Origin: Candidatus Pacearchaeota archaeon | Lineage (GTDB): Archaea; Nanobdellota; Nanobdellia; Pacearchaeales; GW2011-AR1 | Direction: 5' to 3' | Assembly: GCA_041660485.1 (NCBI GenBank) | Contig: JBAZWF010000001.1 | Span: 410,224 to 474,223 of the forward strand | Length of the DNA stretch: 64,000 nucleotides | In this document: positions 2,902 to 30,525 of the stretch, in pieces | Position numbering within the stretch: position 1 is the stretch's first letter | Layout of the letters: each line of letters begins with the position of its first letter | The notes under the pieces: generated by a model | Seen by the model: only the letters and a program-made list of their open reading frames with translations | Told to the model about the DNA's origin: nothing | Databases searched by the model: none | Translations under genes and position numbers: made by a program

Positions 2902-3041
2902 GCTCCCGTAGCTCAGCCTGGATAGAGCGCTGGCCTTCTAAGTAAAAAGAACCGAGGGTTCTTCTTACGACATCTCCTTTTTGGAGAGGGCGAAGAAAAG
3001 AAGACAGTCAGAGGTCGCAGGTTCGAATCCTGTCGGGAGCA
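2902..3041 (+). tRNA. tRNA-Arg (anticodon UCU) with a 65-nt intron at 37/38
   Basis: Manual fold: acceptor GCTCCCG/CGGGAGC, D arm GCTC..GAGC, anticodon stem CTGGC/GTCAG, loop CT-TCT-AA, T arm GCAGG-TTCGAAT-CCTGT, discriminator A. Intron is 2941-3005. Confidence 0.85.
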
Positions 3042-3095
3042 TTTATGTTATTATGCTATTGAATGAAATGAAATAGTATAAAATATTCTGATTGA
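3029..3095 (+). repeat. Direct repeat copy 1 (67 nt): last 13 nt of tRNA-Arg plus 54 nt of trailer
   Basis: cctgtcgggagcatttatgttattatgctattgaatgaaatgaaatagtataaaatattctgattga is identical to 3222-3288. Confidence 0.9.
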
Positions 3096-3109
3096 TTCAA
3101 ACTAGAGTT

Positions 3110-3234
3110 CAGGTTCGAATAGTTGGTTTCCAGAGAAAACAACTTGCCAAAATTCTATTAAGAATTTTAAGCACCTTAAATTCTCTAGAATTTAATGGGA
3201 TAGAGAATAAAATTCTCTAGACCTGTCGGGAGCA
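3110..3234 (+). other. Interrupted pseudo-3' segment of tRNA-Arg
   Basis: caggttcgaat (3110-3120, same as the tRNA T-arm 5' half and loop) + 101-nt insert (3121-3221, includes hairpin TTAAATTC-tcta-GAATTTAA at 3176-3195) + cctgtcgggagca (3222-3234). Removing the insert recreates the last 24 nt of the tRNA exactly. Confidence 0.7.
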
Positions 3235-3288
3235 TTTATGTTATTATGCTATTGAATGAAATGAAATAGTATAAAATATTCTGATTGA
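3222..3288 (+). repeat. Direct repeat copy 2 (67 nt) of the tRNA-Arg 3' end plus trailer
   Basis: Perfect match to 3029-3095, offset 193 nt. Confidence 0.9.
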
Positions 3289-3363
3289 ATTCGAACTCAA
3301 GAGCATTTTACTTTAATAATATTTAAAAAATCAATATTCTTTGTTATTTCTTATATTATTAAA

Positions 3364-3627
3364 ATGAAACCTTCAAATAGGATTGAGGCAAGAACAAAAG
3401 TCATGGAAATGGGATTAAGAGAAGATTATATTGCAGGGATTGAAAGAAATATTCGTTCTGCAAATAAAACAATAGAATCAATTACTAAAACTGAAACTTA
3501 TAATGTTATAACTGCTGCAATCCGATACTATTCTTATATATATAACGGCCAATCAGATAATAAGCTATTAATGAGAGCAGCTGACAAAGCTTTAGATATT
3601 TATAGTAGAAAACGCAAAAGAAACTAA
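3364..3627 (+). CDS. Hypothetical protein (87 aa)
   Basis: ORF with plausible composition and no recognisable motif. Lies between the tRNA-Arg repeats and the LAGLIDADG ORF. Confidence 0.35.
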   Translation: MKPSNRIEARTKVMEMGLREDYIAGIERNIRSANKTIESITKTETYNVITAAIRYYSYIYNGQSDNKLLMRAADKALDIYSRKRKRN

Positions 3628-3696
3628 TTAATTATTTATTATATTAAATTAAGGGAATATTTAAATATCAAAAACTAAATGTTTTTATGATTAATT

Positions 3697-4398
3697 ATGG
3701 ACTTATATGAATTAATGGGGTTTATAATTGGCGACGGTAATATTTATTATAGCAATAAATTTCAAGTCTATAGACTAGAATTATGTGGTAATTCTAAAGA
3801 AGATTATGATTATTTTCAAAAAATTTGTACATTTCTTGAAAAAGAAACTAGTAAGAAACCAATAATGTTTATAAGAAAAGAAAAAAAAGGAGAGAGTTTA
3901 AGAATCCAGTTTAATAACAAAAATTTTGTAGATAAATTAATAAATCTTGGATTACCTAAAGGTAAAAAGACTTTTAGCATAAAAATACCCGATAATTTAC
4001 TAAAAGAAGAAATTATGTTTTCTATATTAAAGGGACTATTTGAAGCCGATGGATGCTTATATTTTTCTAAATCAAAGAAATTAGAATATCCCTCTTATCC
4101 AAGAATTGAAATAAAAACTTCTAGTTCTGAATTAGTTCAACAAATTAATAATTTTTTAAATTCTCAAGGTTTTATAACATATATAAAAAATCCGTCTAGT
4201 GATAGAACATTTTCATTAGTATTAAGTGGAGAAAATATGCTTAAAAAATGGATTAATAAAATTGGTTTTGCAGGTCAAAAAAATCTAACTAAATATGAAA
4301 TATGGAAATCGAAAGGGTTTTATATACCTAATACTCCACTAAAAGATAGGTTAAACATGTGCGGGGATGGCACAGCGGCTACTGCGGTCGATTTTTAG
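3697..4398 (+). CDS. Double-motif LAGLIDADG homing endonuclease (free-standing)
   Basis: Two LAGLIDADG motifs: LMGFIIGDGNIY and ILKGLFEADGCLY, about 100 aa apart. The last 38 nt, including the stop, overlap the 5' exon of tRNA-Lys. Confidence 0.85.
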   Translation: MDLYELMGFIIGDGNIYYSNKFQVYRLELCGNSKEDYDYFQKICTFLEKETSKKPIMFIRKEKKGESLRIQFNNKNFVDKLINLGLPKGKKTFSIKIPDNLLKEEIMFSILKGLFEADGCLYFSKSKKLEYPSYPRIEIKTSSSELVQQINNFLNSQGFITYIKNPSSDRTFSLVLSGENMLKKWINKIGFAGQKNLTKYEIWKSKGFYIPNTPLKDRLNMCGDGTAATAVDF

Positions 4399-4491
4399 TA
4401 ACTTATGTTCATAAAGAGCCGAACCTGCAGCTGATGTGTAAGGTGTAAAGTAGTAAGCGACTTTTCCCGGGTTCGAGTCCCGGTCCCCGCT
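4361..4491 (+). tRNA. tRNA-Lys (anticodon UUU) with a 58-nt intron at 37/38
   Basis: 5' exon is exactly 37 nt (GCGGGGA TG GCAC..CTGC G GTCGA TT-TTT-A). 3' exon: A GCGAC TTTTC CCGGG-TTCGAGT-CCCGG TCCCCGC T. Intron is 4398-4455. One A-G mismatch closes the anticodon stem. Confidence 0.8.
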
Positions 4492-4524
4492 TTTCAATTT
4501 ATAAATATATTTCTAGAAATCCCA

Positions 4525-5418
4525 TTAAACATTAATTTTCATCATATCTTCTGCAATAACTGTTTCTTTAAAATATTTTTTTGCAAAAGTTAAAAGCTCT
4601 TTTACATTATTTTCATGTTTCTGGCTAAAATGAGTTAAAACTAATTTTTTAGTTCCAACTCTTTTCGCAATCTGTGCAGCTTGAGTAGCAGTCATATGTT
4701 TATACTCTTTAGCTAAATCCTCTTCATCTAAATAAGTAGATTCACAAATTAACAAATTTGAATCTTTAGCAATTCTATCGATATCAAGATTAGTTTTTGT
4801 ATCGGTAACAATAACTATTTTCTTTCCTTCTTGTTTAAATATTAAATCTTTAGCTTTTATTTTTTTGCCATTTATAGTTATATCTTTTCCTTGTTTCAAA
4901 TTTCCAATAATCGGCCCATTTGGAATTTTAAGTTTCTCTAATTTCTTTTTGTCAATTTTAATTTTATCTTTTTCAATAAATGCATAAGCTAAACATGGAG
5001 CATCATGAATCATTTCTTGAGCAGTAATTTGAAAATCTTCAGTATCTAAAACAATTCCAGAAGAAATTTCTTTTACTTTAATTTTTATTTTTCCAATATG
5101 AACAAAAATTGAAAGTATTTTTTCCATATAATCTCTAGTTCCTTTTGGCCCGTAAATTTCAAGTTCCCTAGGATAATCATTTAATGCAAGAGTTTGTAAT
5201 AATCCAGGAATACCCAAAATATGATCTCCATGCCAATGGCTAATAAAAAGTCTTGTTAATTTGCACGGATTAAGTCCTGCCTTCCTAAACTGCTTCTGTG
5301 TGCCTTCACCACAATCAAAAAGAATATTTTCAGTTTTATATCGTAAAAAAACTGATGGATGATTTCTTCTTACTGTTGGCACAGCACTTCCTGTACCTAA
5401 AAAAACTATTTCTATCAT
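4525..5418 (-). CDS. rnz: Ribonuclease Z (tRNA 3' endonuclease, metallo-beta-lactamase fold)
   Basis: 297 aa, HxHxDH motif ISHWHGDHILG, typical RNase Z length and N-terminus MIEIVFLGTGSAVP. Confidence 0.9.
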   Translation of the reverse strand: MIEIVFLGTGSAVPTVRRNHPSVFLRYKTENILFDCGEGTQKQFRKAGLNPCKLTRLFISHWHGDHILGIPGLLQTLALNDYPRELEIYGPKGTRDYMEKILSIFVHIGKIKIKVKEISSGIVLDTEDFQITAQEMIHDAPCLAYAFIEKDKIKIDKKKLEKLKIPNGPIIGNLKQGKDITINGKKIKAKDLIFKQEGKKIVIVTDTKTNLDIDRIAKDSNLLICESTYLDEEDLAKEYKHMTATQAAQIAKRVGTKKLVLTHFSQKHENNVKELLTFAKKYFKETVIAEDMMKINV

Positions 5419-5534
5419 AAATACATTTACAAATAATTAGTTTAAATAAGTTCCCAAACCATAAGCATAATTCTCATTAGCTCTTAAGACACCAGAAATC
5501 AGGCGCCGTTAAAATAAAAAAGGGCAATTCAAAT

Positions 5535-5789
5535 TTACTTTTTTAAAACCGTAGATGCAGGTGAGATAAATACAATTGTATCTCCTCTAAGGAAAGTCAA
5601 TCCAACATTTCTTTTTATTTCGTTGTTCTGCATTTCCTTGGCATTATCTAAAACCACATTAATGTGGATATCAAATGCTAAAAGAGTTCCAACCAATTGC
5701 TTATCACTCTTAAGCTGCACTAAAATTTCTTTTCCCTTTGAGTTATTCAAAAGGTCAAGTGGTCTATCAATTCCGTTAACCATAAACAA
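5535..5789 (-). CDS. Archaeal Sm-like (LSm/SmAP) protein
   Basis: Sm1/Sm2 signature: VGTLLAFDIHINVVLDNAKE ... LRGDTIVFISP. The start may be the internal M (MVNG). Confidence 0.85.
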   Translation of the reverse strand: MFMVNGIDRPLDLLNNSKGKEILVQLKSDKQLVGTLLAFDIHINVVLDNAKEMQNNEIKRNVGLTFLRGDTIVFISPASTVLKK

Positions 5790-5815
5790 GTTCGCCCAAA
5801 CAACTTTTTAAATGT

Positions 5816-6088
5816 TTGCTTCATATTATAATGAATATGAAAAAATATTGGTTCAAAGCAAAGTATTATGGTTGGGGTTGGTATCCTTCATCCTGGCAAG
5901 GAGGTTTAGTAATGCTAATTTTTATTTTATTAATTATATTCAATGCAATAAGAATTGACAGTCAACAGCATTCAGTTTCAAACTTTCTAATTAATTTTAT
6001 CCCTCAAACAATTTTATTTGCAATTATATTAATAATTATTGCATGGCAAACAGGTGAAATGCCAAAATGGAGATGGGGAAAAAGTTAA
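5816..6088 (+). CDS. Small hypothetical membrane protein
   Basis: 90-aa ORF with two hydrophobic segments. The start is probably the internal MKKYWF. Confidence 0.4.
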   Translation: MLHIIMNMKKYWFKAKYYGWGWYPSSWQGGLVMLIFILLIIFNAIRIDSQQHSVSNFLINFIPQTILFAIILIIIAWQTGEMPKWRWGKS

Positions 6089-6319
6089 TAAACTGATTAT
6101 CAATCAAATAAATATGGCACATGATATTACAACTTATTTTCCAGAACTTGATTTAAATAATCCCGGAGATATATTTGTAGATGATGAAAATGAATGGATA
6201 AAAAGAAATTATCTTCTTGACCAGCCAAATAATTTAAGTGTTGAAATTTTAGCTATTCAATTTGATTAGGCTAATAAAAAGGTATTTAAAGCATCTTTTT
6301 AATAATTTAATATCATAAA

Positions 6320-6685: not shown

Positions 6686-6703
6686 AACCTAATTTTCTAA
6701 AAA

Positions 6704-7860: not shown

Positions 7861-7886
7861 GTTCACATTTTCTAAAAATATATGAT

Positions 7887-8921: not shown

Positions 8922-9005
8922 GTGGGTGTGCCGGAGTGGTCAAACGGGACAGACTCAAAATCTGTTAGCTTAGTGCTTTCCTAGGTTCGAATCCTAGCAC
9001 CCACA
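8922..9005 (+). tRNA. tRNA-Leu (anticodon CAA), no intron
   Basis: Acceptor GTGGGTG/CACCCAC, anticodon arm ACAGA-CT-CAA-AA-TCTGT, long variable arm, T arm CTAGG-TTCGAAT-CCTAG, discriminator A. Confidence 0.85.
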
Positions 9006-9213
9006 TTTTATAAATATGCTATGAGATTCGAACCGTAGGTTCGAACTCAGTTAAATTCACAGAATTTAACTTACCAGAAATCTTTGATTTATGAGTACTA
9101 GCACCCACATTTTATAAATATGCTATGAGATTCGAACCGTAGGTTTGAACTCAGTTAAATTCACAGAATTTAACTTACCAAAAATAGAATATTTTTGAGT
9201 ACTAGCACCCACA
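9006..9213 (+). repeat. Two tandem 104-nt units, each ending in a copy of the last 12 nt of tRNA-Leu
   Basis: Units are 9006-9109 and 9110-9213. Each starts ttttataaatatgctatgagattcgaacc and ends gagtactagcacccaca. Unit 1 has hairpins ttcgaacc-gta-ggttcgaa (9027-9045) and agttaaattc-aca-gaatttaact (9049-9071). ctagcacccaca occurs at 8994-9005, 9098-9109 and 9202-9213. Confidence 0.9.
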
Positions 9214-12200
9214 TTAATTAGAAGAACTCTCTTTATACTTGTCATAATATTGTAAAACCTTTTCAACATAATCATCTCGAATAACATTAAAACATACGTC
9301 AGAACGATATTGAGGGCAATTTTTCTCTAAATTTCCAATTCCATGATTATAAGCATATAATAAATTACTAATAAGATTAACTCTATAAACCTCTTGCAAA
9401 CATTTTAAATAACAAATTCCTAGATTAATATTTGCCGAAACATCAGTATTTGAAGGATTATCAATATTGTCCCACCCTGTAAAAACTAAACCTCTACAGT
9501 TATTAACTCTATTAAAACATTCTCCATTGCTAACTGCAACTGCCCCATAACCTCCACTATTTGTTATTTGCATTAAACCTAAAGCTCCTGCATTACTTTT
9601 ATCTTTTGGATTCCAATTACTTTCTTGTTTAACAACTGCTTTAGCTAAATTTGCATCAAAGTTTCTAGCACTAGCAATTTGTTCAACAATTGGAGAATAA
9701 GTTATTTCATTTTGAGAAGGAGTTGTAGTTGTTGTAGTTGTATCTTTTTTTGCAAGTGGTTCCCAAATAATGGTAATCGGATCTTTATTAAAATCCACAG
9801 TTGTCAAAATAAGTTTATTACCTGTAGCTGTTGCAGGATAACTATAAACCTCAGCAGTTTTTTTATCTTTATCTATCCATTTACTAAATATAACATTATG
9901 TTCTCCAGTAGCAGTATTTTTATTATAAATCTGAAGTAAATCTCCTGCTCTTAAATCATATTGTCCCCTAGAACAAGCATTACACGAAGAACAAGCAGGT
10001 TTTGCATATGAAGGATTAATATCATTTGTTGCAAAAACACAATTCTTATCAACACCTGCAACATAATAAACAGAAACAGCAACAGTAAAACAACTCAATT
10101 CCCCTTCACTTTTAGGACAATACTGATTATAAATGTCTTTTCCAAGTTGCCCTTTTAATTCTTCAGCAGCCTGAATTACTTTTGCACCTAAATCAGTTTC
10201 AGTTGTAGTTGTCCCACCCTTCACTTTACAACAAACTTTATCTGCATCTAAAATTTCTTTTTTATTTGTTAATTTATCAGTTATATCTTCTTCATTAGTA
10301 GCACACTTATCATCTTTTATATTTCCACCGGCAGTTTTACATTCACTTTCTCCACTTATCTCACTACTTACAGCATTTGGTTGAGTTGTAATAGGTAAAC
10401 TTTTCCAAATAACTAAAGATAAAACATGATAAACTCTTGCTCGATCAAAAAACATTCTTGCTTTTTGTAAAATATTTAAAGAATATTGGTTATCAAGAGT
10501 ATCAAGTTTTACAATAATAACTTTAGCATTTGCTTTTGCATCATCAACATTCATTGAATTTAATTTATTAATTTCCTCTTCAATTTTTCCAAACTCACTA
10601 GCTGCAATATTTACATCAAGTTCTTTAAATCCTGCAATTTGTTGGCTAAGCAAACCTGCTTGTTTATCTAATGTACTTATTGTTTCATTTAAAACTCCTG
10701 CATTTCCAGAAGTTATTGCATCTGCAATTGAACTTTTATCAAGCCAGCATCTTATTTTTGTATCTCCACAATATCCAACAGTTTGCCATCTTGCAGGTTC
10801 AGTTGTTCCACCCGGATTGTTTGTTGCACATATTCTTATTAATCCTCTACTATAAATTTGTGCAGTTGTTGCTTCTTGAACACCTGCTTGAAGATTTGGA
10901 TTAACAGTGGCTAATAGTCCCGGAGTTCCAGAAACACAACCTGCTTCAGTTGTTATTTGAGTATTTGTTGCCTGATCTTGTATATATTTATCTCTAATAT
11001 AATTTATAGCAAATGAAGTTGAAACTTGTTTAAATCCGCATTTTTCTTCTATTCCAATTCTCACACAAAGTTGTTGATAACCAGAAGGCCCTGTAAAGTC
11101 TTTTGTTTGATCAACATATCCTCCTTTTGCAACATAACCTGTATCAACATAACCATAGCCAGTTGTTGAATAAAGTGAAACTCCAGTTGCATCTTTCAAA
11201 TAAACTGAATACTGCGCACCTTCATCATTTCCTGCATAAATATGATAATAAACTTTATATTGTGAAACAGCAGGCACAGTTGAATCTGTTTGTTTAATTT
11301 CTTCAAACCAGGCACTAAATTGTGTTGGTGAATCAGGTTCAATTAATGTTTTAAATGAACTTGGATATTTTGTTGAAACAAATGATTTACAAACTTCAGT
11401 TCCAACTTCTGCTGTTGAACGAGTTTTAAATGATTTCATTGCATTAATTCCATAAACATTTGTAAAATAATTAATTGAACTTTGCATATTTGTCCATGCA
11501 GCTTGAACACTCATATATTCTCCTCCGCCTCTTGAACCTCCTCCAACTGCAAATTCTAAAAGTTTAGGAAGAATCACATTTAATAAAGGAGAAACTTGTT
11601 TCCAGAAAAATTCACAAGTATAAATTGCAGTTATTTCATCACATATTCCAACATATCTTCCAGTTTCAAGATTTTCCTGCAAACAATCACGTGAAGCTTT
11701 CAAAATTGAAACATAATTATCAACACCTGCCTGAACTCCAGTTAAACAAACCGGTATGAAAATTCCTTCTTTATAATTAGGCAGACATAAAAATAAACTT
11801 CCTGCAATTCCACTCTGAACAACATCATCAACATAATATTTTCCTCCTAAATTACATCTTGAGGCAGGACATATAACCGGATCACACATATTAAATAATA
11901 ATTTACAATCATCAGCAGACATAAAGTCTTGACATTGAGTTTCAGGATTATTTGTTGCAGCATTTCCAACTGTAATTTTTTGTCCTAAAATTGTTACATA
12001 TTTAATACTTGAACCATATTGATTTGCAGCTTGTTCAATTGCCTGCAAAGCACTCTGAACTTTTTGTGTAGCTTCTTTATCAGTTAAACCATAAAACTGA
12101 TTTAATTGTTGTCCAGTATTCATATTAAACTGCTGGCATAAATCATCACCTAATCCTGTATTAAATTCTTCTCGTCCATTTTTACCAACATTACAAAGCC

Positions 12201-15200
12201 AGAAACTTGAAACCGCTCCAGAATCTTGATATGTTTTAATATTTCCAAATGCAGCAATTGTTTGCTTTGTAGCCGCATACCATCCATTTTTCAAATCAAA
12301 CGGAACAACAGCAGGCATTCCTTTGTAAGGTTCAGTTTCATAATATTTTACTTTTGCATCTTTAAATGCATTATTATATGAAGATGAATCAAACTTTTCA
12401 AATAAAGGATGTTCAGTTTTAATTTTACTAATTAAAGTATTATCTGTAATTTGCTGATTATTTTTATCAAATATTTTACCTTCATCAATAATATATTGAG
12501 TTGTACTTCCAGGAGCTAATTTTAATGCAACAGAATAAACATTTCCATCAATCATAACTCCTTGAATATGAGTATTTGTTGGTAAACTAAATTGATTTGT
12601 AGCTTCAGTTACTGCTCCTGTATAAGGTTCAACATTTGCAATCCCTTGTTTATTTTTTTGAGCATTAACACTATAAGTTCCTGCAATTCCTAAAGTTCCT
12701 GCATTTGCAACTGTCTGTTTTATATTATCAGTTTCTGCCTCAATCTGTTTAATATTATTCATTGAGGTGTATAATTTTTGTTCTTGAATTTTCTTTAATG
12801 TTGAACTAGTATCGCTTGCAATATAACTATTATAAGCTAATCTTAATTCTCTTGTCTGATCATATGTTAATGTTTCAGAATCTAATTTTGATGCAATATC
12901 TTTTATGGCAATAGAATTTTGTCCTTTATCATCAGCTATACTTAAAGAACTTGTACTTAATTCAGTTTTCAACTTTTCAACATAAGCTGCATTTGCACTA
13001 TCTGCATCAATTGTCTTTCCGCCAAGAATGCCAGTAGTTTTTGTAAATGGTTCTTGAATAGCTTTAATTTCATTATTCACATTAGTTATTTGTTGAGATA
13101 ATAAATTAACATCTCTTTCTATGTTATCATTATTTTTAGAAAAACAATCATCTAAACTTGCATAAGGCCCGCCAGCCATTGTAGTTCCAGTCTTCGGCAT
13201 ACCTCCATTTGACATTGCATCAGCACAAAGTGCATTCCATCCAGAATTTGCTGCATTCATAACCTGAGTTCTTGCAATAGCTTTTCCACCTAAATTTGAA
13301 AATAAATTCTTAACTTGCAATACAGCAGATGTTGCAAAACAAGCAGTTTTCATTACTTTAACTGTTGAAGTTAATTTAGCAGAGATATTTTGCCATTTAG
13401 CAATTGATTCATTTAACCTTGCTATTCTTTCTTTTGTTTTTTCAGGAGATAACTTTATAGCTCTTTCTTCAATTCCAATTCTATAACTTACATTAGCATA
13501 TGAACCAAGATTTTTCACAACTGGTTGAATTTTTATTTTTGCAACACTTTTAACAGTTACTTCTTGTAAAATTAAATTTTCTCCACAAACCGGTTTTTGA
13601 ACTCCAATAACTAAACTTTCAGTTTGAGTTGTTAATTTTCCATTAGTATCATAACAATTTCCAATTACTTTAGCTCCTTCATCAGTAAAACTATCTAATT
13701 GAATATTTGTTTTTTGTTTTTTAGTTCCATCTGTTTGAGTAACTGAACTAGGAGAAATAATATATTCTTTAGCTTCACTTAATATTACTGGATTTCCATT
13801 AAGCATAAATTTGACCTTGCTTAAATCTTCTCCAACATTATAAATGGATTTTAATGTAACAACGTGTTTTTGCCCAGAAAGCTCAAAAACAAATGATGCT
13901 TTGCTATTATCAATATTTATGTCTTGAATCCCATAAGGTAATTCATTATATTTCGATTTATATAAGGCTAAAATTTCTTCTGCAACTTTTCCTTTATTTG
14001 TACTTACAGCAAGATTATATGCATTTTGCAAAGAAACTTTTCCATAAGTATCTCCATTTGAAGAATCTGATTTTTCATATTCAACATCTCCATAAGTTTC
14101 ACTTACAGATTTATATCCATCAACAGCTAAATTAAAGTTATTTTCAAAATCTCCACTTCCAGTATCAATACTAATTGCTCCAGTATAATCTGAAAATAAA
14201 ATATCCTTGCCAATAAAATTAACAGAATCTCCTTTTTTTATTATTGCAATAGCATATTGTTTATTGTATGTATAAACATTGCTTTTAAAATCAGTATTTA
14301 AAAGACTTAATGCATAATCATTTAATTTTTTCTTGAGCTCTTCACTAAATATAGTTGTTTGAGGTAATGAAACTAAAATTAAAAATGGCGCTTTATCTTT
14401 TGAACTAACTCCTGTTGATGCAAAATAAGTATTATTGTTATCTCCATTATATAATAAACTTCCAACAGAATATCCATCATTACTTGAACTATCAAATGTA
14501 ATTAAAGCACTTTTAACTCCAAGCTCTAAAACAAATGGTTTTCTTCCACTACTTGTCTGACAATCTCCTCTTACAATTCCACTGCTTCCACCACTTGATT
14601 CAATTTTATTAACCTTACAAATATTATCTGCAAATACCCCTCCTACACCTTCATAAACATCATATTCATCACTATCAAAAGTTAATTTTGCACTTTTTTG
14701 TGCACTTAGTGAATCAGAATAAGTAATTGTATATCCTGCATTACAATAAAATCCAGGTAAATATTGTTCAGATGAAGATTTTCCTCTTGAAACTTCAAAC
14801 GAACTTACTTTATGATTTACATCACTATAAACAGAACCTCTAACAACACCACTATCAACATATTCAACTCTTAAAAATCCTTTTCCATTCATAAACACAA
14901 ATTCATTATATCTCTGTTGCCATTGTTCCTCTGTTAAAACCGGAATTAGTTTTTCATTAATTCCCATTCCAAAAGCAACCGGAGCATCATAAGTTATTTT
15001 AGCAGTTAAATTTCCTGAAATAACTTTAGTTAAATTATTTTCATTTGGTTGTTGTTTTAATACAATAACTGCATATCCAATATTATCGATTGTTGGAAAT
15101 CCATTTTTGCCTTTTGATGTAGATAATATTGTTTTAGTAGGTTGATAAAAAGTAACACCTGTAACACCTACAGGAGTTTTTCCACTATAACTAAAACTAA

Positions 15201-15573
15201 TTGATTTAATTTCTTCTGGATTTACTGCAGGATTAATTTGTATTGCTTGCAACTTGCAAAAAACCGGAACATTTTGTTCAGCAAGCAAATCACTTCTTAC
15301 CACAGCCGGAGTACAACCGCCAGGAGAAATTTGAACTATAAAATCCTGTCTTGCTAAACACATCTCACGATTTGCAGTTGGATTTCCTCCATATAAATAA
15401 GGAAATAAAACCGAATTACTTCCTGAAAATCCAGGTTGATAGTATTGAGGATTTGAAAAAGATGCACTACTCCCTCCAGAAGAATATTCTCCTCCAGTGC
15501 TTCCATAAAATTCAGCACTAACAAAAAATACCATGCTTAAAGTTAATAACAAAACTAATATTTTACGAATCAT
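9214..15573 (-). CDS. Giant secreted protein (2119 aa) with a C-terminal SLT lytic-transglycosylase domain, preceded by a candidate papain-fold (NlpC/P60/CHAP-like) module
   Basis: Signal peptide MIRKILVLLLTLSMVFFVSA. SLT motifs AVVKQESNWNP, GLMQI and AYNHG in the last ~168 aa (nt ~9217-9720). Upstream are ELSCFTVAVSVYY ... AGDLLQI..GEHNVIFSKW (Cys/His spacing, inference), a poly-Thr linker, and a Cys-rich and coiled-coil middle. Confidence 0.85.
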   Translation of the reverse strand: MIRKILVLLLTLSMVFFVSAEFYGSTGGEYSSGGSSASFSNPQYYQPGFSGSNSVLFPYLYGGNPTANREMCLARQDFIVQISPGGCTPAVVRSDLLAEQNVPVFCKLQAIQINPAVNPEEIKSISFSYSGKTPVGVTGVTFYQPTKTILSTSKGKNGFPTIDNIGYAVIVLKQQPNENNLTKVISGNLTAKITYDAPVAFGMGINEKLIPVLTEEQWQQRYNEFVFMNGKGFLRVEYVDSGVVRGSVYSDVNHKVSSFEVSRGKSSSEQYLPGFYCNAGYTITYSDSLSAQKSAKLTFDSDEYDVYEGVGGVFADNICKVNKIESSGGSSGIVRGDCQTSSGRKPFVLELGVKSALITFDSSSNDGYSVGSLLYNGDNNNTYFASTGVSSKDKAPFLILVSLPQTTIFSEELKKKLNDYALSLLNTDFKSNVYTYNKQYAIAIIKKGDSVNFIGKDILFSDYTGAISIDTGSGDFENNFNLAVDGYKSVSETYGDVEYEKSDSSNGDTYGKVSLQNAYNLAVSTNKGKVAEEILALYKSKYNELPYGIQDINIDNSKASFVFELSGQKHVVTLKSIYNVGEDLSKVKFMLNGNPVILSEAKEYIISPSSVTQTDGTKKQKTNIQLDSFTDEGAKVIGNCYDTNGKLTTQTESLVIGVQKPVCGENLILQEVTVKSVAKIKIQPVVKNLGSYANVSYRIGIEERAIKLSPEKTKERIARLNESIAKWQNISAKLTSTVKVMKTACFATSAVLQVKNLFSNLGGKAIARTQVMNAANSGWNALCADAMSNGGMPKTGTTMAGGPYASLDDCFSKNNDNIERDVNLLSQQITNVNNEIKAIQEPFTKTTGILGGKTIDADSANAAYVEKLKTELSTSSLSIADDKGQNSIAIKDIASKLDSETLTYDQTRELRLAYNSYIASDTSSTLKKIQEQKLYTSMNNIKQIEAETDNIKQTVANAGTLGIAGTYSVNAQKNKQGIANVEPYTGAVTEATNQFSLPTNTHIQGVMIDGNVYSVALKLAPGSTTQYIIDEGKIFDKNNQQITDNTLISKIKTEHPLFEKFDSSSYNNAFKDAKVKYYETEPYKGMPAVVPFDLKNGWYAATKQTIAAFGNIKTYQDSGAVSSFWLCNVGKNGREEFNTGLGDDLCQQFNMNTGQQLNQFYGLTDKEATQKVQSALQAIEQAANQYGSSIKYVTILGQKITVGNAATNNPETQCQDFMSADDCKLLFNMCDPVICPASRCNLGGKYYVDDVVQSGIAGSLFLCLPNYKEGIFIPVCLTGVQAGVDNYVSILKASRDCLQENLETGRYVGICDEITAIYTCEFFWKQVSPLLNVILPKLLEFAVGGGSRGGGEYMSVQAAWTNMQSSINYFTNVYGINAMKSFKTRSTAEVGTEVCKSFVSTKYPSSFKTLIEPDSPTQFSAWFEEIKQTDSTVPAVSQYKVYYHIYAGNDEGAQYSVYLKDATGVSLYSTTGYGYVDTGYVAKGGYVDQTKDFTGPSGYQQLCVRIGIEEKCGFKQVSTSFAINYIRDKYIQDQATNTQITTEAGCVSGTPGLLATVNPNLQAGVQEATTAQIYSRGLIRICATNNPGGTTEPARWQTVGYCGDTKIRCWLDKSSIADAITSGNAGVLNETISTLDKQAGLLSQQIAGFKELDVNIAASEFGKIEEEINKLNSMNVDDAKANAKVIIVKLDTLDNQYSLNILQKARMFFDRARVYHVLSLVIWKSLPITTQPNAVSSEISGESECKTAGGNIKDDKCATNEEDITDKLTNKKEILDADKVCCKVKGGTTTTETDLGAKVIQAAEELKGQLGKDIYNQYCPKSEGELSCFTVAVSVYYVAGVDKNCVFATNDINPSYAKPACSSCNACSRGQYDLRAGDLLQIYNKNTATGEHNVIFSKWIDKDKKTAEVYSYPATATGNKLILTTVDFNKDPITIIWEPLAKKDTTTTTTTPSQNEITYSPIVEQIASARNFDANLAKAVVKQESNWNPKDKSNAGALGLMQITNSGGYGAVAVSNGECFNRVNNCRGLVFTGWDNIDNPSNTDVSANINLGICYLKCLQEVYRVNLISNLLYAYNHGIGNLEKNCPQYRSDVCFNVIRDDYVEKVLQYYDKYKESSSN

Positions 15574-20092: not shown

Positions 20093-20102
20093 AATCATAA
20101 AA

Positions 20103-20123
20103 TGGCCCTGCCAAGAATCTAAC
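20103..20123 (-). repeat. Pseudo-copy of the tRNA-Val 3' end
   Basis: tggccctgccaagaatctaac matches 20250-20270 (tggccctgccaagaatcgaac) at 20 of 21 positions. It lies 127-147 nt downstream of the tRNA on the tRNA strand. Confidence 0.8.
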
Positions 20124-20175
20124 ACCTGCAGTTCGCAGAACAAGGGTTGCCAAAAATTTATAAAATTTTTTAGCA

Positions 20176-20207
20176 CTTACAAAACTTTGAGATTTTGGTT
20201 TTGTAAG
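20176..20207. repeat. Hairpin within the tRNA-Val downstream element
   Basis: cttacaaaac-N12-gttttgtaag (10-bp stem). Related to the hairpin at 30343-30378. Confidence 0.6.
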
Positions 20208-20249
20208 GATGATTCTTCAGGTTATATATTATTTAGAAGAAATAATTTA

Positions 20250-20321
20250 TGGCCCTGCCAAGAATCGAACTTGAATCTCATCCACGTCAAGGATGCATCT
20301 TAGCCATTGGACTACAAGGCC
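20250..20321 (-). tRNA. tRNA-Val (anticodon GAC)
   Basis: Reverse complement: GGCCTTG TA GTCC..; anticodon arm CATCC-TT-GAC-GT-GGATG; T arm TCAAG-TTCGATT-CTTGG; acceptor 3' strand CAGGGCC; discriminator A. Confidence 0.85.
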
Positions 20322-22610: not shown

Positions 22611-22682
22611 GCCTCCATAGCTCAGTGGTAGAGCGGCGGTTTTGTAAACCGTAGGTCGAGGGTCCAAATCCCTCTGGAGGCT
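22611..22682 (+). tRNA. tRNA-Thr (anticodon UGU)
   Basis: GCCTCCA TA GCTC-AGTGGTA-GAGC G GCGGT-TT-TGT-AA-ACCGT AGGTC GAGGG-TCCAAAT-CCCTC TGGAGGC T. TATA-like ctttttaaac lies about 27 nt upstream. Confidence 0.88.
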
Positions 22683-27175: not shown

Positions 27176-27196
27176 CAGTTTTGTGAAACAAAACTG
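27176..27196. terminator. Hairpin between the convergent srp54 and bud32 genes
   Basis: cagttttgt-gaa-acaaaactg (9-bp stem) directly after the bud32 stop. Confidence 0.35.
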
Positions 27197-27199
27197 CAA

Positions 27200-27823
27200 T
27201 TAAATCTTCTCTTTATATCTTCCTCTGCTTTCAACAACTTTTAATCTTTCAACAACCTGCGAATCATTTTTAGAAATCTTATAACCTTTCATAATCGCCT
27301 TAAAATACTCTTCCCAATCTTCAAAATGTTTTGCTTCCAAAGCTTGTTTAATTAAATGCAAATCAACAGCTTTGTCTTCAATTCTTTCTGAATGAAATCC
27401 CAACCCAAAATCAATAAACCATACTTCATTATTTTTATCAAGAATAATATTGCTTGTCGTCAAATCTCCATGAATAATATTACTATCATGCAACTTTGCA
27501 ATTGACTGCCCAATTTTCTGACAAATCTCCAAAGCTTTTTTCTCAGGTAGTTTATCAAGATATTCAGAAAGTTTTTTTCCTTTTATCTCAGGCATAACTA
27601 TTTTAGTTGATTTCTTATCTTTTTGCTCTTCAGGTTTTGGCGCATTAATAATCTTGCTTGCTTTTTCAAGTAATTTTGTTTCTTGGCGAGTTCTTAATAT
27701 TCTAATTTTACTATCAATTTCTTTTAATCTATAACCTTTCTCAATTCTGTCTTTTATAACTTTATCATTCGATAAAACAATATTTGCCTCTGCTCCTGAT
27801 GCAATTATTTTCCCACTAATCAT
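27200..27823 (-). CDS. bud32: Bud32/PRPK-type atypical kinase (KEOPS subunit)
   Basis: 207 aa, GAEANI Gly-loop, IIHGDLTTSNIIL catalytic loop, FIDFGLG. Stand-alone, not fused to Kae1. Confidence 0.8.
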   Translation of the reverse strand: MISGKIIASGAEANIVLSNDKVIKDRIEKGYRLKEIDSKIRILRTRQETKLLEKASKIINAPKPEEQKDKKSTKIVMPEIKGKKLSEYLDKLPEKKALEICQKIGQSIAKLHDSNIIHGDLTTSNIILDKNNEVWFIDFGLGFHSERIEDKAVDLHLIKQALEAKHFEDWEEYFKAIMKGYKISKNDSQVVERLKVVESRGRYKEKI

Positions 27824-27872
27824 ATATTTTTAATTCTCATAATGCTTAAATATCCTTCTCTTATATAATTTT

Positions 27873-28409
27873 ATGGTAAAACTAAGTGGAAATATTTTTA
27901 ATAGAATGCGAGGAAGCCTTAATACAACATTTCATCCTAATGAAGTTCACGAAGGCATGCTTACTACTCGAGGCTTAAGACTAATAAAACCTTCAATTGA
28001 TTCTATTCCTGAAGTTAAATGGGCATTTCTGACTGATAAAAGATTTTGCAATGAAAAAATATACAAAGAATTTGAAAGATTTATGCCTCCTGGATTTGAA
28101 TTAGTCTCACCTCCTGCTGAACAAGATGCTTTTACCTATGCTTTAAACCTCAACGGACAAATGAATAGAATGAAATTCCTATTTGAATTAAATAAAAATT
28201 ATTTAAGGGATCGTAAACCTGAAAGTGGAAGTATCATTGCTTACTATTTAGAAGATTCACTTGAGATTGACCCAATCCATGCAGGAATTTATGCAGGTAA
28301 TGAAAGAGTTAATTCAAGATTTTCTCTAGGTTATCCTGTTGTACAACATCCCATAAATGACATCCCATATTCTGAATTTCACTATGAATGCTATAAAAAA
28401 CGTAGTTAA
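27873..28409 (+). CDS. Hypothetical protein (178 aa)
   Basis: ORF only. PIHAGIYAG is reminiscent of papain-fold amidases, but no convincing Cys partner is present. Confidence 0.4.
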   Translation: MVKLSGNIFNRMRGSLNTTFHPNEVHEGMLTTRGLRLIKPSIDSIPEVKWAFLTDKRFCNEKIYKEFERFMPPGFELVSPPAEQDAFTYALNLNGQMNRMKFLFELNKNYLRDRKPESGSIIAYYLEDSLEIDPIHAGIYAGNERVNSRFSLGYPVVQHPINDIPYSEFHYECYKKRS

Positions 28410-28607
28410 ATAAATATACTATATCTCTACCAAATTTTTAATAAGCTATCTTAAAGATTAATTAGTTCACGTTAGAAAATTGCAATCAAAAGAGCCGAGC
28501 TTGCAAAGCAATATCAAATAAATTATCTATTTCAATATAATTTTAATTATATTAAAAAAATAAAAAACAAAGAAGAAGAAAAATAAAAAAATAAAATTCT
28601 TTATGCT

Positions 28608-30113
28608 TTAGCAAGAGAAACTATATGCTGCATTTTGGGTTCCACCTACATAACTTTGATAAGTTATTGATGTAAGTTTTATTTTAGCTCCGTCAGATAA
28701 TGTAAATAGTTGTCCATTAATAAGCTGTCCAGTACTTTCTCCATTAACTGTAAACATAGCTTTTAATGAGTCAAGATCCATTAATTTAACTGCATAAGTT
28801 TTACCTTTACATACGAGATTCTTAGTCTGAACTTCATTTAATGTATCTGTTAATGTTGAAGTCAAATCAGTATTACACTTTCCAGCATCACATCCGTTTG
28901 CACAAATAGCTATTTCATAGCTTAAAGTTTGTGCTGTTGCAGAAGGGCATTTAAACTCTAGTAAGGTAGTTGGTCCTAAACAAATATCTTCTCCAGCATA
29001 TAATTTATTGCTAGAAGTTACTTCTGTCTTTCCTTTAACAAATGAAGGCGAAACCATTGCTCTATCACTATCAATACAACTTGTAGCTATACAAGCTTTA
29101 TTTAAACAACCATTTTCACAATTTATTTCTTGTTTAATTACTTGATCTCCGTTTACATTATATAACAAATAATTTGTTACTATCTGTAAATCTAAAACAT
29201 CTGCTTTTTTATCTCCATTTAAATCAGCCCTATTACATTCAGAAGTTATAGAACCTGAAGGCAAGCATGTATCTCTAAGGAATGTAACATCTGCTTCATC
29301 TACAACTCTATCTTTGTTTATATCATACATTTGACTGTAAAATATATTTACATTACAGTTATATTCAACTAATTTTTTACCATCACATACATCAGTAAAT
29401 GTTGTTTTTTCTGTTTTTGTATTAGTTGCAGTTACCACGCCAGTTACCTCATCTTTAGTACATGTTGGTCCAGCAATGCTACAATAAAATGAAGCATATT
29501 CAACTCCATTTGATGCTTTAATTTTTGAATTTTTAATTACTCCTGGACAAACAGTTGATACTGAAGTAAATTTCCCATCTTGACAATAATACTCTATAAT
29601 ATTATTTCCAGAATACGAGTCTGCATAAACTTCCATAGATGCACCACTTCCTAATTCAACAACTCCTGCACGAAGAGGATAGTTTCCATCTGTATCTTTA
29701 CAAACTGGAGAAATACATTGTCCAACTTTTTCTACAGTAGTAGTTCCCATCTGTACAGTTTTTTCTTCACATCCTACCGGGCACGGAACTGTTACAGTCA
29801 TAAGTGTATTAACATCTACAGTTTTTTCCTGTACTAAACAAATTCCAAGAAATTTTCGGCCAGGACAATATTTTGATGGAACTTTTGAGATATAAGTTTC
29901 AGTAACTCCACTTGAAGCTACTCCTTGATTTGTACAAAGATCTTTATTTATTGCACCATTCCAAACAACTCCGGCAAAATACTTATTATTTCCATTATCA
30001 CTTTCTTGCCATTCAGTAGGAGACAAACTAACTATTGCATCTTCAGCAATAACTCCAGCACTCATTAAAACAACTAATGCGAGAGAAATTCCTAATATTA
30101 AATTCTTTTTCAT
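28608..30113 (-). CDS. Secreted Cys-rich repeat protein with a dockerin-like double Ca-binding repeat
   Basis: Signal peptide MKKNLILGISLALVVLMSAGVIA. DINKDRVVDEADVTFL and DLNGDKKADVLDLQIVTNYLL resemble dockerin type I repeats. Recurrent ..EY.C../..GC..G.C modules. Strong SD GGAGGT upstream. Confidence 0.6.
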   Translation of the reverse strand: MKKNLILGISLALVVLMSAGVIAEDAIVSLSPTEWQESDNGNNKYFAGVVWNGAINKDLCTNQGVASSGVTETYISKVPSKYCPGRKFLGICLVQEKTVDVNTLMTVTVPCPVGCEEKTVQMGTTTVEKVGQCISPVCKDTDGNYPLRAGVVELGSGASMEVYADSYSGNNIIEYYCQDGKFTSVSTVCPGVIKNSKIKASNGVEYASFYCSIAGPTCTKDEVTGVVTATNTKTEKTTFTDVCDGKKLVEYNCNVNIFYSQMYDINKDRVVDEADVTFLRDTCLPSGSITSECNRADLNGDKKADVLDLQIVTNYLLYNVNGDQVIKQEINCENGCLNKACIATSCIDSDRAMVSPSFVKGKTEVTSSNKLYAGEDICLGPTTLLEFKCPSATAQTLSYEIAICANGCDAGKCNTDLTSTLTDTLNEVQTKNLVCKGKTYAVKLMDLDSLKAMFTVNGESTGQLINGQLFTLSDGAKIKLTSITYQSYVGGTQNAAYSFSC

Positions 30114-30289
30114 TTTTACCTCCTTTCACTTCTTTTATCTCATAAATGAGATATTACTATTAAAAAAAACAGATATTTAAATATTATGCTTTAACAATAA
30201 AAGATTAGAAAATCAATATCTGTAAATTTATTTTATATTATTCTAAATATTTGAAAATTTAGTAATATTTAAGAAATTAATAAAAATAA

Positions 30290-30303
30290 ATAGCCCCGCC
30301 AGG
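30290..30303 (-). repeat. Pseudo-copy of the tRNA-Gln 3' end
   Basis: atagccccgccagg versus atagccctgccagg at 30401-30414 (13 of 14), 111 nt downstream on the tRNA strand. Confidence 0.65.
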
Positions 30304-30342
30304 CACTTAAAATTTATTCTAAATTTTGGTGACTATGATTTT

Positions 30343-30378
30343 TTACAAAATCAAGTATTCGAACACTTGAGTTTGTAA
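30343..30378. repeat. Long hairpin capped by a T-loop-like sequence in the tRNA-Gln downstream element
   Basis: tRNA-strand reading: TTACAAACTCAAGT-GTTCGAAT-ACTTGATTTTGTAA. The stem sequence is related to the Val element hairpin. Confidence 0.6.
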
Positions 30379-30401
30379 GAACGAAAGTAGGTGAGAATCA
30401 A

Positions 30402-30525
30402 TAGCCCTGCCAGGATTCGAACCTGGGTCACAAGCTTTCTCCGATGTTCGCTCGCGATAATATTAATGGGTCTCGCAAACAACCTCGCCAAAGGCTCGTA
30501 GATTTGACCGCTGTCCTACAGGGCT
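30402..30525 (-). tRNA. tRNA-Gln (anticodon UUG) with a 51-nt intron at 37/38
   Basis: Reverse complement: acceptor AGCCCTG/CAGGGCT, anticodon stem CGAGC/GCTTG, loop CT-TTG-G[intron]A, T arm CCAGG-TTCGAAT-CCTGG, discriminator A. The D stem is only 3 bp. Confidence 0.75.

Follow-up and report, generated by a model that had tools for sequence, protein, structure and literature searches.

Hairpin-structured cassettes between repeated tRNA 3' ends in a Pacearchaeota genome

tRNA genes and their 3'-end copies

The window, that is, the whole 64-kb stretch of DNA analysed here, contains six tRNA genes, five of which were recovered by an Rfam search; the sixth, tRNA-Lys(UUU) (4361-4491, plus strand, intron of about 60 nt), was recovered solely by aragorn with introns allowed. 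Four of the six, those for Arg, Leu, Val and Gln, are followed downstream by direct copies of their own 3' ends. A sequence-only reading of this DNA had claimed as much, and the repetition is stronger than it stated, with a 2.1-copy array at Leu and a 67-nt exact repeat at Arg, for which the proposed length of 12-21 nt is far too short. The genes for Lys and for Thr(UGU) (22611-22682, plus strand, Rfam), the latter with a T5 run directly after it, had been described as lacking copies; none was found in the direct-repeat comparison, and both genes, being without an element, serve as internal negatives. The same reading overlooked an inverted copy of the T-loop, the true length of the Arg repeat and a module common to all four elements.

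The tRNA-Arg(UCU) gene (2902-3041, plus strand, intron of about 67 nt, Rfam 53.7 bits) has as its repeated 3' end the last 13 nt, CCTGTCGGGAGCA (3029-3041), as read from the sequence. By repeat search, these 13 nt and a 54-nt trailer, B, form a direct repeat in which 3029-3095 and 3222-3288 on the plus strand are 100% identical over 67 nt at a spacing of 193, with the second 3' end at 3222-3234. Arg element 1 (3042-3221, plus strand), delineated by sequence reading, folding and a covariance model, carries TATGCTATTGA at 3052-3062 and three more hairpins in addition to its T-arm copies, of which the inverted T-loop, GATTCAAAC (about 3094-3102), is degenerate and the direct T-arm copy, CAGGTTCGAAT, lies at 3110-3120 (3112-3122 in one of the analyses). 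The H hairpin module, TGC-C-AAAATTC..GAATTTT-AA-GCA (3145-3173, plus strand), was located by structural scan and has a covarying outer helix; the hairpin TTAAATTC-TCTA-GAATTTAA (3176-3195, plus strand) is common to the Leu, L005 and L079 elements. The element folds with an MFE of -39.8 kcal/mol (z -3.4), and a covariance model built without the window Arg sequence matches 3092-3186 with an E of 7e-5. Further downstream lies a distal remnant (3287-3309, plus strand), comprising an inverted T-loop, GAATTCGAAC (3287-3297), TCAA, and a truncated third 3'-end copy made up of GAGCA (3301-3305) and TTTT (together 3301-3309). This remnant is orthologous to the sole trailer feature of the L181 tRNA-Arg, TTT-GGATTTGAAC-ACAC-TCAAGAG-TTTT.

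At tRNA-Leu(CAA) (8922-9005, plus strand, Rfam 60 bits), the 3' end CTAGCACCCACA (8994-9005) begins a tandem array (8994-9215, plus strand) in which the 3' end and a three-hairpin element of about 90 nt occur twice, followed by a third 3'-end copy. TRF gives a period of 104, 2.1 copies and 93% matches, with further copies of the 3' end at 9098-9109 and 9202-9213. Unit 1 (9023-9109, plus strand) comprises the T-loop palindrome GAGATTCGAACC-GTA-GGTTCGAACTC, a hairpin at 9051-9069, the H hairpin at 9072-9097 and the 3'-end copy; it folds with a z of -5.5 and, as a training sequence, scores 90.2 bits in the covariance model. Unit 2 (9127-9213, plus strand) shares 97% identity with unit 1 across 75 nt, and its H hairpin (9176-9201) shows seven differences from that of unit 1, including a compensatory C-G to A-T change.

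The remaining two loci lie on the minus strand. Downstream of tRNA-Val(GAC) (20250-20321, Rfam 54.7 bits), repeat and structural scans delimit a feature at 20102-20249, consisting of an element (20120-20249) and a second 3'-end copy, GATTCTTGGCAGGGCCAT (20102-20119); the repeat pairs 20102-20123 with 20249-20270 (22 nt, 95%). The element contains a hairpin, CTTACAAAAC..GTTTTGTAAG (20177-20206), an inverted H module (20148-20175) and a GTTC-TGC-GAAC hairpin. The tRNA-Gln(UUG) gene (30402-30525, intron of about 54 nt, Rfam 44.8 bits) is followed at 30289-30401 by an element (30304-30401) and a second 3'-end copy with one mismatch, CCTGGCGGGGCTATT (30289-30303), the repeat pairing 30285-30303 with 30396-30414 (19 nt, 89%). 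This element has an inverted T-arm in degenerate form, GATTCTCACCT, together with a long hairpin with apex TTCGAA (30343-30378) and the H hairpin CAC-C-AAAATTT..AAATTTT-AA-GTG (30304-30331); its match to the covariance model is weak (22 bits, E 0.21).

Anatomy and distribution of the cassettes

The cassettes are built to a regular plan: an inverted copy of the T-loop of their own tRNA, paired with a direct copy, then A/T-rich hairpins, one or two in number, that show compensatory changes, and finally the 3'-end copy. The inverted T-loop tracks the unusual loop of its own tRNA (TTCAATT in L013, TTCGATT in L052, TTCAATC in L005 and TTTGAAT in L079) and covaries between orthologues, as in the window and L181 Arg genes. 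The motifs named in the sequence-only reading were found within the 64 kb only in the elements to which it assigned them, and above expectation from shuffles, the patterns having been defined after seeing the data: TTAAATTC-N3/4-GAATTTAA has three matches (0 expected) and TATGCTAT(N)GA four (0.49 expected), all in the Arg and Leu elements, and TTACAAA-N8-30-TTTGTAA has two (0.08 expected), in the Val and Gln elements. The split drawn there between an Arg/Leu and a Val/Gln family is not a clean one: one hairpin module is common to all four elements (inverted in Val).

An architecture of about 85 nt with three conserved hairpins by RNAalifold, and compensatory changes in 13 of 25 pairs, recurs at Leu-CAA, Leu-TAG, Thr and Arg tRNAs in six genomes. 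In 945 kb searched, covariance-model matches with E <0.01 fall only immediately 3' of tRNAs; the unseen members matched were at the L042 tRNA-Leu (40 bits), the window tRNA-Arg (38.8 bits) and the L079 tRNA-Thr (28.7 bits). Modules are also similar across tRNAs, with the window Val element homologous to the L035 tRNA-Gln element (z 14.7), followed by window Leu and L005 Thr (7.7), window Arg and L005 Thr (6.8), and window Arg and window Gln (5.4). By structural scan, 11 of 33 matches fall in the 5.4% of the sequence that adjoins tRNAs. The H module can face either way with respect to the tRNA, as seen in Val and L035. An H-like hairpin was also seen at 33894-33919, in a convergent intergenic region.

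We surveyed about 0.87 Mb of related Pacearchaeota loci with 139 tRNAs, taking as threshold the 99th percentile of controls. Similar elements do occur at other tRNA loci and in related genomes: 23 of the 139 tRNAs (about one in six) exceeded the threshold, against 2 of 417 control comparisons. Every copy lies downstream of its tRNA, on the tRNA strand and no more than 200 nt away. At 12 nt with at most one mismatch, 14 of 136 tRNAs have a downstream copy and none of the 136 has an upstream or opposite-strand copy, and no 3'-end copies were found more than 400 nt away in up to 10 kb of flank. Cassette sizes are discrete (27-193 nt), with none of 0.4-10 kb in loci picked without regard to integrases. 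In every case 1-19 nt separate the tRNA from the left junction, after which comes the inverted T-loop. Repeats span 10-67 nt and sometimes reach 14-54 nt into the flank (L042, L048 and Arg). T-runs of at least four stand after 3 of the 18 first copies but after 7 of the 18 last ones, and after 50 of the 119 copy-free tRNAs, indicating that the native flank follows the distal copy; runs of T4-T8 come after several first copies. Arrays are seen at Leu (two units), at Arg (two to three copies) and in L009 (two).

Cassettes are present or absent between relatives. In L181, whose LAGLIDADG protein is 76% identical, the tRNA-Leu site is empty and tRNA-Arg has a minimal remnant alone, and the close relative L013 has an unrelated element at tRNA-Val and no copy at tRNA-Gln detected in the 3'-end copy screen. 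The same small architecture was noted at a bacterial tRNA-Lys locus, with a prophage attR upon it in one genome.

Integrases of the phylum and known systems

For the window, the stated absence of an integrase is borne out, with no Phage_integrase match among the 40 ORFs scanned and no tblastn match to the Nanoarchaeota integrase family; nor was an integrase or transposase found in 91 S3Ae-anchored loci. Integrases of the phylum use the tRNA 3' site, and an integrase element can adjoin a miniature cassette in tandem. In L188 (Nanoarchaeota), tRNA-Cys is followed by a 5.07-kb element that encodes a 392-aa PF00589 tyrosine integrase and ends in TGGCGTGCGCT, then by a 75-nt hairpin cassette and a third GGCGTGCGCT, both insertions lying between copies of one repeat of 10-13 nt. 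This repeat is found again with the elements of L193 (7.2 kb) and L189 (11.2 kb). The integrase family numbers 1940 homologues and adjoins a tRNA 3' end in five contexts, and the sublocation and repeat length of the Nanoarchaeota integrase elements equal those of the cassettes. None of the five integrase elements examined has arms that resemble the cassettes or contain an H module, and an inverted T-loop is found in one P arm only. No free, unintegrated form or viral copy of the cassettes was found.

Tyrosine-integrase elements and proviruses use attachment sites in tRNA genes, and displaced tRNA 3' fragments are known in archaeal genomes. Sublocation classes of tRNA-gene integration were reportedly described by Williams in 2002; She et al. 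are said to have treated archaeal integration, and a study of Thermococcaceae, reportedly, tRNA gene fragments. As at such sites, the insert lies between direct repeats of a tRNA 3' segment running from the T-loop or T-stem to just past the discriminator, the tRNA is regenerated with the native fragment displaced downstream, and the site serves integrases of the phylum as well. Unlike integrase elements, the cassettes are 40-190 nt long and gene-less, with a three-hairpin anatomy, an inverted T-loop and no integrase nearby, and they outnumber full elements by about 25 to 0 in unbiased loci. CIMEs of Streptococcus ICEs, att-flanked DNA without recombination genes that is mobilised by joining an autonomous element, are likewise att-bounded and integrase-free, and in L188 a cassette stands in tandem with an autonomous element at one tRNA; however, CIMEs are bacterial and kilobases long, whereas the cassettes are archaeal, <0.2 kb and highly structured, and their mobilisation is putative.

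Among palindromic mini-elements, REP/BIME and the IS200/IS605-derived PATEs resemble the cassettes as extragenic mosaics of short imperfect hairpins in both orientations, with conserved asymmetric internal loops and stems that evolve compensatorily, but they have neither long direct repeats nor a tie to tRNA ends, where the cassettes almost exclusively lie; no RAYT or TnpA was seen with the cassettes. Casposons of Aciduliprofundum and Methanosarcina duplicate 14-15 bp of target sequence at tRNA 3' ends. Many cassettes, too, are flanked by a duplication of about 12-16 nt over the tRNA gene end, yet the cassettes are without terminal inverted repeats or Cas1 and have repeats anywhere between 10 and 67 nt long. 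Transposed non-canonical tRNA introns of Thermoproteales, reportedly described by Fujishima et al. in 2010, are also related short structured inserts common to different tRNA genes, and in the second copy the insert separates the T-loop from the T-stem's 3' strand. The cassettes differ in lying outside the functional tRNA, the first copy being an uninterrupted tRNA, and inspection revealed neither a bulge-helix-bulge motif nor a 5' acceptor partner in them.

Origin of the cassettes

With a probability of about 0.5, we read the cassettes as miniature, protein-less, hairpin-structured insertion elements bounded by att repeats at tRNA 3' ends. Of the three origins put forward in the sequence-only reading, this is best supported, by one architecture at several tRNAs and in six genomes, the empty orthologous Leu site in L181, the tandem copies and the discrete sizes. 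The specific geometry and polarity of the 3'-end copies, the phylum's integrases at this site and the bacterial tRNA-Lys locus also speak for it. It is opposed by the missing recombinase genes in the window and anchored loci, the unlike arms of the integrase elements, the failure to find a free or viral form, and the physical awkwardness of double-stranded 100-200 bp circles as intermediates. The variable length of the repeats and their extension into the flank also count against it, being easier to reconcile with homology-driven recombination or with tandem events than with a fixed integrase core, and the copies within the window are diverged and give no sign of recent mobility. Decayed att footprints, the second origin, would make each cassette the remains of a full-length element after interior deletion, with no life of its own. 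The att link in this proposal is supported, as the phylum's integrase elements generate exactly such repeats and one adjoins a cassette in L188, and the genomes are small and deletion-prone. Random decay, however, predicts a size continuum and unrelated remnants, and is contradicted by the discrete sizes, the left junction that always lies close to the tRNA and leads into an inverted T-loop, the three-hairpin order repeated at different tRNAs and the dissimilar arms of the full elements examined; we consider it unlikely.

Less likely again is a local rearrangement without mobile DNA: during replication of a highly transcribed gene, template switching at its quasi-palindromic T-arm would yield a direct-inverted-direct T-arm triplication with a duplicated 3' end, slippage later expanding the arrays. 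Such a process would suit an inverted T-loop that equals each tRNA's own loop and covaries with it, repeats that reach into the flank, the plain tandem repeat at Leu, and the bacterial case and L181, which are made almost wholly of tRNA-derived pieces, but it cannot make non-tRNA hairpin modules homologous across tRNAs and genomes and leaves their near confinement to tRNAs unaccounted for. The tRNA-linked small RNAs of the earlier proposal belong to a reading that we hold more doubtful still, a functional trailer, co-transcribed with the tRNA, that would work as RNA, be it a processed small RNA or a module of anti-T-arm, terminator or processing type, or, in a variant, A4..T4 hairpins serving as bidirectional terminators under host selection. 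Module orientation in either direction, T-runs after first copies that should halt archaeal RNA polymerase, patchiness among orthologous tRNAs, the lack of any Rfam family matching the cassettes, and the bulge-helix-bulge motif and 5' acceptor partner looked for by eye and not seen all disfavour it, against a hairpin structure conserved through compensatory changes where sequence is not, better folding of sense than antisense in GC-richer members, a native terminator after the last copy, and the H-like intergenic hairpin. One Logan contig stops inside tRNA-Leu, which shows that the repeats disturb assembly; an artefact is nonetheless very unlikely, since an independent Logan contig, L092, matches the entire Val locus at 100% identity and the architecture recurs at over 20 loci in assemblies obtained from JGI, ENA, NCBI and Logan. 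The Val, Gln and Leu copies are, moreover, diverged and non-identical.

As miniature insertion elements, the cassettes would insert by recombination within the last 10-22 nt of the tRNA gene, an interval that begins in the T-loop or the T-stem's 3' strand and closes 1-5 nt beyond the discriminator. A replacement 3' end would come with the incoming DNA, so that the tRNA would be left intact, and the native 3' end with its oligo-T terminator would be displaced downstream as the second copy. The elements encode nothing, and the recombinase would most likely come from elsewhere, in trans or in cis through joining a full-length element, with the Nanoarchaeota tyrosine integrases of about 390 aa that use this site as its model. 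Arrays may arise via repeated insertion or unequal recombination between repeats. These particular insertions would be the work of an integrase and not of homologous recombination or some other enzyme; the T-arm palindrome and hairpins would be cis-acting sites, and the elements may still be mobile.

Duplicated tRNA 3′ ends in the window

Four of the six tRNA genes in the window, those for Arg, Leu, Val and Gln, are followed by a downstream copy of their own 3′ end, as the sequence-only reading had claimed, and no copy was found at tRNA-Thr or tRNA-Lys, which it had listed as lacking them. The Arg repeat is an exact 67-nt duplication (3029–3095 and 3222–3288), with a truncated third 3′-end copy at 3301–3305, immediately before a TTTT run. 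At tRNA-Leu, TRF reports a 104-nt unit present 2.1 times, giving three 3′-end copies, while the Val and Gln repeats span 22 nt at 95% and 19 nt at 89% identity. An independent Logan contig is identical base for base at the Val locus. The motifs that the same reading described as shared between elements are confined to these elements within the 64 kb and occur more often than in shuffled sequence; its statement that no integrase is present holds for the window, with PF00589 found in none of 40 window ORFs scanned and tblastn also negative. No further copies of the element bodies were found within the window by blastn. Head-to-tail tandem copies occur at tRNA-Leu (period 104, 2.1 copies) and in a second locus, L009 (period 69, two copies); tandem repetition or slippage explains the amplification, without explaining where the unit came from. 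A 2119-aa ORF with no assigned family, 9214–15573 (−), ends 1 nt from the third tRNA-Leu 3′-end copy.

The window carries archaeal chromosome markers (ribosomal protein S3Ae, TFIIB, SRP54/FtsY, RadA and RNase Z) at a G+C content of 30%, and its nearest S3Ae relatives are Pacearchaeota/Nanoarchaeota MAGs at 71–73% identity. Many of its ORFs match no Pfam family, as is usual in DPANN. Rfam identifies five tRNAs, to which intron-aware ARAGORN adds tRNA-Lys(UUU) at 4361–4491 (+). Neither Rfam, whether at its gathering or at an E-value threshold, nor ARAGORN with default settings detected this gene, whose intron is about 60 nt long, and ARAGORN with introns allowed labels it wrongly as 'Stop(tta)'; long introns (54–67 nt) at the canonical position occur in three of the six window tRNAs. 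A free-standing LAGLIDADG ORF of 233 aa, 3697–4398 (+), overlaps the 5′ half of tRNA-Lys by 38 nt, its stop codon falling in the anticodon loop. It has 59 Nanoarchaeota homologues, and the 3′ end of the ORF is likewise overlapped by tRNA-Cys in L188, by Lys-like tRNAs in L184 and L185 and by another tRNA in L183, all loci fetched for comparison. It is odd for a conserved gene resembling those of homing endonucleases to abut a tRNA gene. The RNase Z (tRNase Z) gene, 4525–5418 (−), directly adjoins tRNA-Lys, a neighbourhood also seen in L181, L188 and L189.

The inserts between copies share a regular anatomy. Starting 1–19 nt past the tRNA (further in Arg, Leu and the L042 tRNA-Leu element) lies an inverted copy of the tRNA's own T-loop and adjoining stem bases, usually partnered by a degenerate direct copy with which it pairs, so that the two form a palindromic hairpin. 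Of 148 tRNAs, 10 have an inverted match of at least 9 nt on their downstream side, and none has one upstream. The inverted copy tracks unusual loops exactly (TTCAATT in L013, TTCGATT in L052, TTCAATC in L005, TTTGAAT in L079), and between orthologous tRNA-Arg genes it changes with the loop, from ATTCGAA in the window to ATTTGAA in L181, with motif boundaries set by eye; several others were likewise fixed by inspection. The T-arm palindrome is followed by one or two A/T-rich hairpins, the last of which, the H module (pattern NNC-C-A4..T4-NA-GN'N'), adjoins the 3′-end copy. Its three outer pairs covary (TGC/GCA, CAC/GTG, TAC/GTA, TCC/GGA, AGC/GCT, CGC/GCG, GAC/GTC), a test that is partly circular because some instances were chosen for pairing. 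Each of the four window elements has an H module, which in Val, as in the tRNA-Gln element of L035, is inverted. Strict H hairpins are six-fold enriched within 300 nt 3′ of tRNAs (this 5.4% of the sequence holds 11 of the 33 matches). Compared with shuffled sequences, the elements form much more stable folds (z −2 to −5.5); folding energies of sense and antisense, compared for which strand forms the structure, gave a mixed result. An H-like hairpin, CACCAAGAATTTAAAATTCTTGAGTG, also lies between convergent ORFs away from tRNAs at 33894–33919 (−), with a similar one at 13750–13774 of L005, and H-type hairpins may also be general terminator-like or REP-like elements.

Cassettes and shared hairpins among relatives

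To place the window in a wider context, we fetched loci from 10 genomes and 80 metagenomes via S3Ae, covering about 0.87 Mb and 155 tRNAs. Of 136 tRNAs, 14 have a 12-nt 3′-end copy with at most one mismatch in the 400 nt downstream, and none has such a copy upstream or on the opposite strand. By local alignment, 23 of 139 tRNAs exceeded the 99th percentile of controls, against 2 of 417 control comparisons. The tRNA 3′-end cassettes are a lineage-wide phenomenon, and the case that the sequence-only reading had named against itself, that other tRNA loci and related genomes would hold nothing similar, failed with the elements found in relatives' loci. A literature search returned no published description of such a tRNA 3′-end cassette architecture. 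Across the 91 S3Ae-anchored loci, no 3′-end copy was found more than 400 nt downstream, where it would be a sign of a full-length integrated element, and the observed spacings of 27–193 nt therefore form a discrete class. Runs of at least four T residues come directly after 17% of first copies and 39% of last copies; for tRNAs without a copy the figure is 42%. The native flank therefore belongs to the distal copy, as expected if the insertion supplied its own replacement 3′ end.

The search for close strains of the window organism returned none beyond the same Logan sample, and a 'strain' comparison of L048 with L049 was unusable, L049 being apparently a chimeric contig with its join around positions 1090–1170. 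As far as the tRNA-Thr T-arm it matches L048 at 99.6% identity; from there on, the 3′ acceptor strand of the tRNA does not pair with its 5′ partner and is similar to that of the L039 lineage. It seems that assemblies can fuse different strains at conserved T-loops.

Comparison with L181, whose LAGLIDADG protein is 76% identical to that of the window and in which the succession tRNA-Arg, small ORF, LAGLIDADG, tRNA-Lys is conserved, reveals differences in occupancy. The L181 tRNA-Leu is without an element, and the tRNA-Arg trailer consists solely of TTT, the inverted T-loop, ACAC, TCAAGAG and TTTT, corresponding to the distal remnant at 3287–3309 of the window. Thus the 180-nt Arg element and the Leu array were either acquired in the window or lost from L181. 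In L013, a near relative, the tRNA-Val element is unrelated to that of the window, and tRNA-Gln shows no copy in the 12-nt 3′-end screen. Both occupied and empty sites, the pattern sought for att-site integration, were therefore found among relatives. Gene order around tRNA-Leu is inverted in L181 relative to the window, marking this locus as a rearrangement breakpoint.

Five sequences from four genomes, comprising two window Leu units, L005 Thr, L006 Leu and L068 Leu-TAG, align to a consensus of three hairpins, and 13 of its 25 pairs show compensatory change. A covariance model built on this family finds three unseen members, at the L042 tRNA-Leu (40 bits), the window tRNA-Arg (38.8 bits) and the L079 tRNA-Thr (28.7 bits, where the element runs into the contig end), and matches the Gln element weakly. 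All matches with E <0.01 in 945 kb lie immediately 3′ of a tRNA. Pairwise similarity also links Val with the L035 Gln element (z 14.7) and Arg with Gln (z 5.4). Together, these matches indicate that different tRNAs and genomes have the non-tRNA hairpins in common, whereas each tRNA has a T-arm mimic and terminal repeat of its own. No Rfam family covers the elements; matches to mir-3015 and Plastid-ycf2 fell well below gathering scores (E 0.075 and 0.029, respectively) and were taken as spurious. Searches of IMG/VR for carriers yielded non-hairpin chance matches alone with the H-module pattern, more than 80 loci with the T-loop palindrome pattern, none adjoining a tRNA or matching the covariance model, and mostly convergent tRNA genes, plus two bacterial examples, with the a..a' pattern.

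Integrase-bearing elements and known classes

Complete integrase elements came to light in other Nanoarchaeota. In L188 (GCA_002634255.1), reached by chance via LAGLIDADG homologues, tRNA-Cys is followed by a gene for a 392-aa tyrosine integrase, and TGGCGTGCGCT recurs 5.07 kb downstream; GGCGTGCGCT then occurs once more 75 nt past that repeat, beyond a hairpin-forming mini-element. Here a mini-element and an autonomous element in tandem have att repeats in common, a CIME-like arrangement seen in this single example. The integrase family has 1940 homologues at E ≤1e-10 and adjoins tRNA-Cys or tRNA-Leu(UAA) wherever the context examined covered DNA upstream of the integrase gene, with distal matching repeats at 7.2 kb in L193 and 11.2 kb in L189. 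In all three loci the repeats are 10–13 nt long, beginning in the 3′ strand of the T-stem and ending one base beyond the discriminator. This repeat geometry is that of the mini-elements, in genomes other than the window's source; neither the window nor any of the 91 S3Ae loci contains this integrase family. The full elements examined share none of the mini-elements' hairpins, and an inverted T-loop-like 9-mer near the right end occurs among them in L193 alone. Elements of this family at tRNA-Cys also carry reverse transcriptase (RVT_1) genes (L189, 13692–14813; L193, 4448–5689), and other cargo includes a PemK toxin (L191) and a nucleotidyltransferase (L193). A type I restriction-modification system lies downstream of the L195 integrase, an element whose distal boundary was not found.

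The same small architecture, with 63-nt spacing, occurs at a Firmicutes-like bacterial tRNA-Lys locus (L097, 145–240; L100, 13651–13740), in the order tRNA, spacer, inverted T-arm, direct T-arm and 3′-end copy. In L100, the place of the tRNA is taken by a prophage attR.

Among known classes, tyrosine-integrase att elements resemble the mini-elements in placing an insert between direct repeats of a tRNA 3′ segment and leaving the tRNA intact, but the mini-elements are 40–190 nt long, non-coding and contain no integrase gene. MITEs depend on a transposase, end in inverted repeats and duplicate a short target of constant length; the mini-elements have no inverted repeats at their ends beyond T-loop-derived bases, and their direct repeats vary from 10 to 67 nt. 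The lack of inverted repeats and the variable repeat length also speak against a casposon derivative, a class with terminal inverted repeats, a 14–15-bp target duplication and Cas1 in autonomous copies; no Cas1 was found in the ORFs scanned. IS200/IS605-type palindromic elements carry hairpins near their ends, do not duplicate their target and work with TnpA or TnpB. Subterminal hairpins occur in the mini-elements, as do long direct repeats; no TnpA was seen in the window. By inspection, bulge-helix-bulge introns were rejected, as the first copy is an uninterrupted tRNA, the Leu junctions lack the 3-nt bulge/4-bp helix, and no such motif lies between T-loop and T-stem of the second copy; split or permuted tRNAs and alternative 3′ exons were rejected on a contiguous cloverleaf and elements without a 5′ acceptor strand.

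Origin and significance of the mini-elements

An origin by att-type insertion is likely, given the direct repeats, their polarity, an insertion site in common with real integrases and the tandem case in L188. Purely local template switching would account well for the tRNA-derived pieces, yet fails on the hairpins common to different loci. That the cassette serves the host as an RNA sits poorly with H modules in both orientations, T-runs after some first copies and a patchy distribution. Turning back to insertion, the regular architecture, transfers between tRNAs and bimodal sizes argue that the mini-elements are elements in their own right rather than random leftovers. The inverted T-loop may have arisen by quasi-palindrome conversion; alternatively, it may act as a recombinase half-site or belong to an att site formed by folded single-stranded DNA. 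Integron attC sites and the CTX-phage attP integrate as folded single-stranded DNA, and the hairpin-rich build and tiny size of the mini-elements would fit such a route, which would sidestep the difficulty of 100-bp double-stranded circles. We tentatively propose, at a probability of roughly 0.3, an undescribed class of ultra-small (about 45–190 nt), protein-less mobile elements specialised for DPANN tRNA 3′ ends, each combining a T-arm-mimic hairpin matched to its tRNA with a replacement 3′ end and one or two further hairpins conserved in structure.

If truly mobile, these would be the smallest att-type integrative elements known, and in this major group of uncultured archaea they would mark some 15–20% of tRNA genes. 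They lend themselves to testing with a DPANN integrase, a tRNA gene and an 85-nt synthetic site. The cassettes also bear on tRNA genes as landing pads, on metagenome assembly breaks at tRNA loci and on the annotation of tRNA fragments. Were they scars alone, integration at tRNA genes would still be frequent in DPANN genomes that otherwise seem free of mobile DNA.
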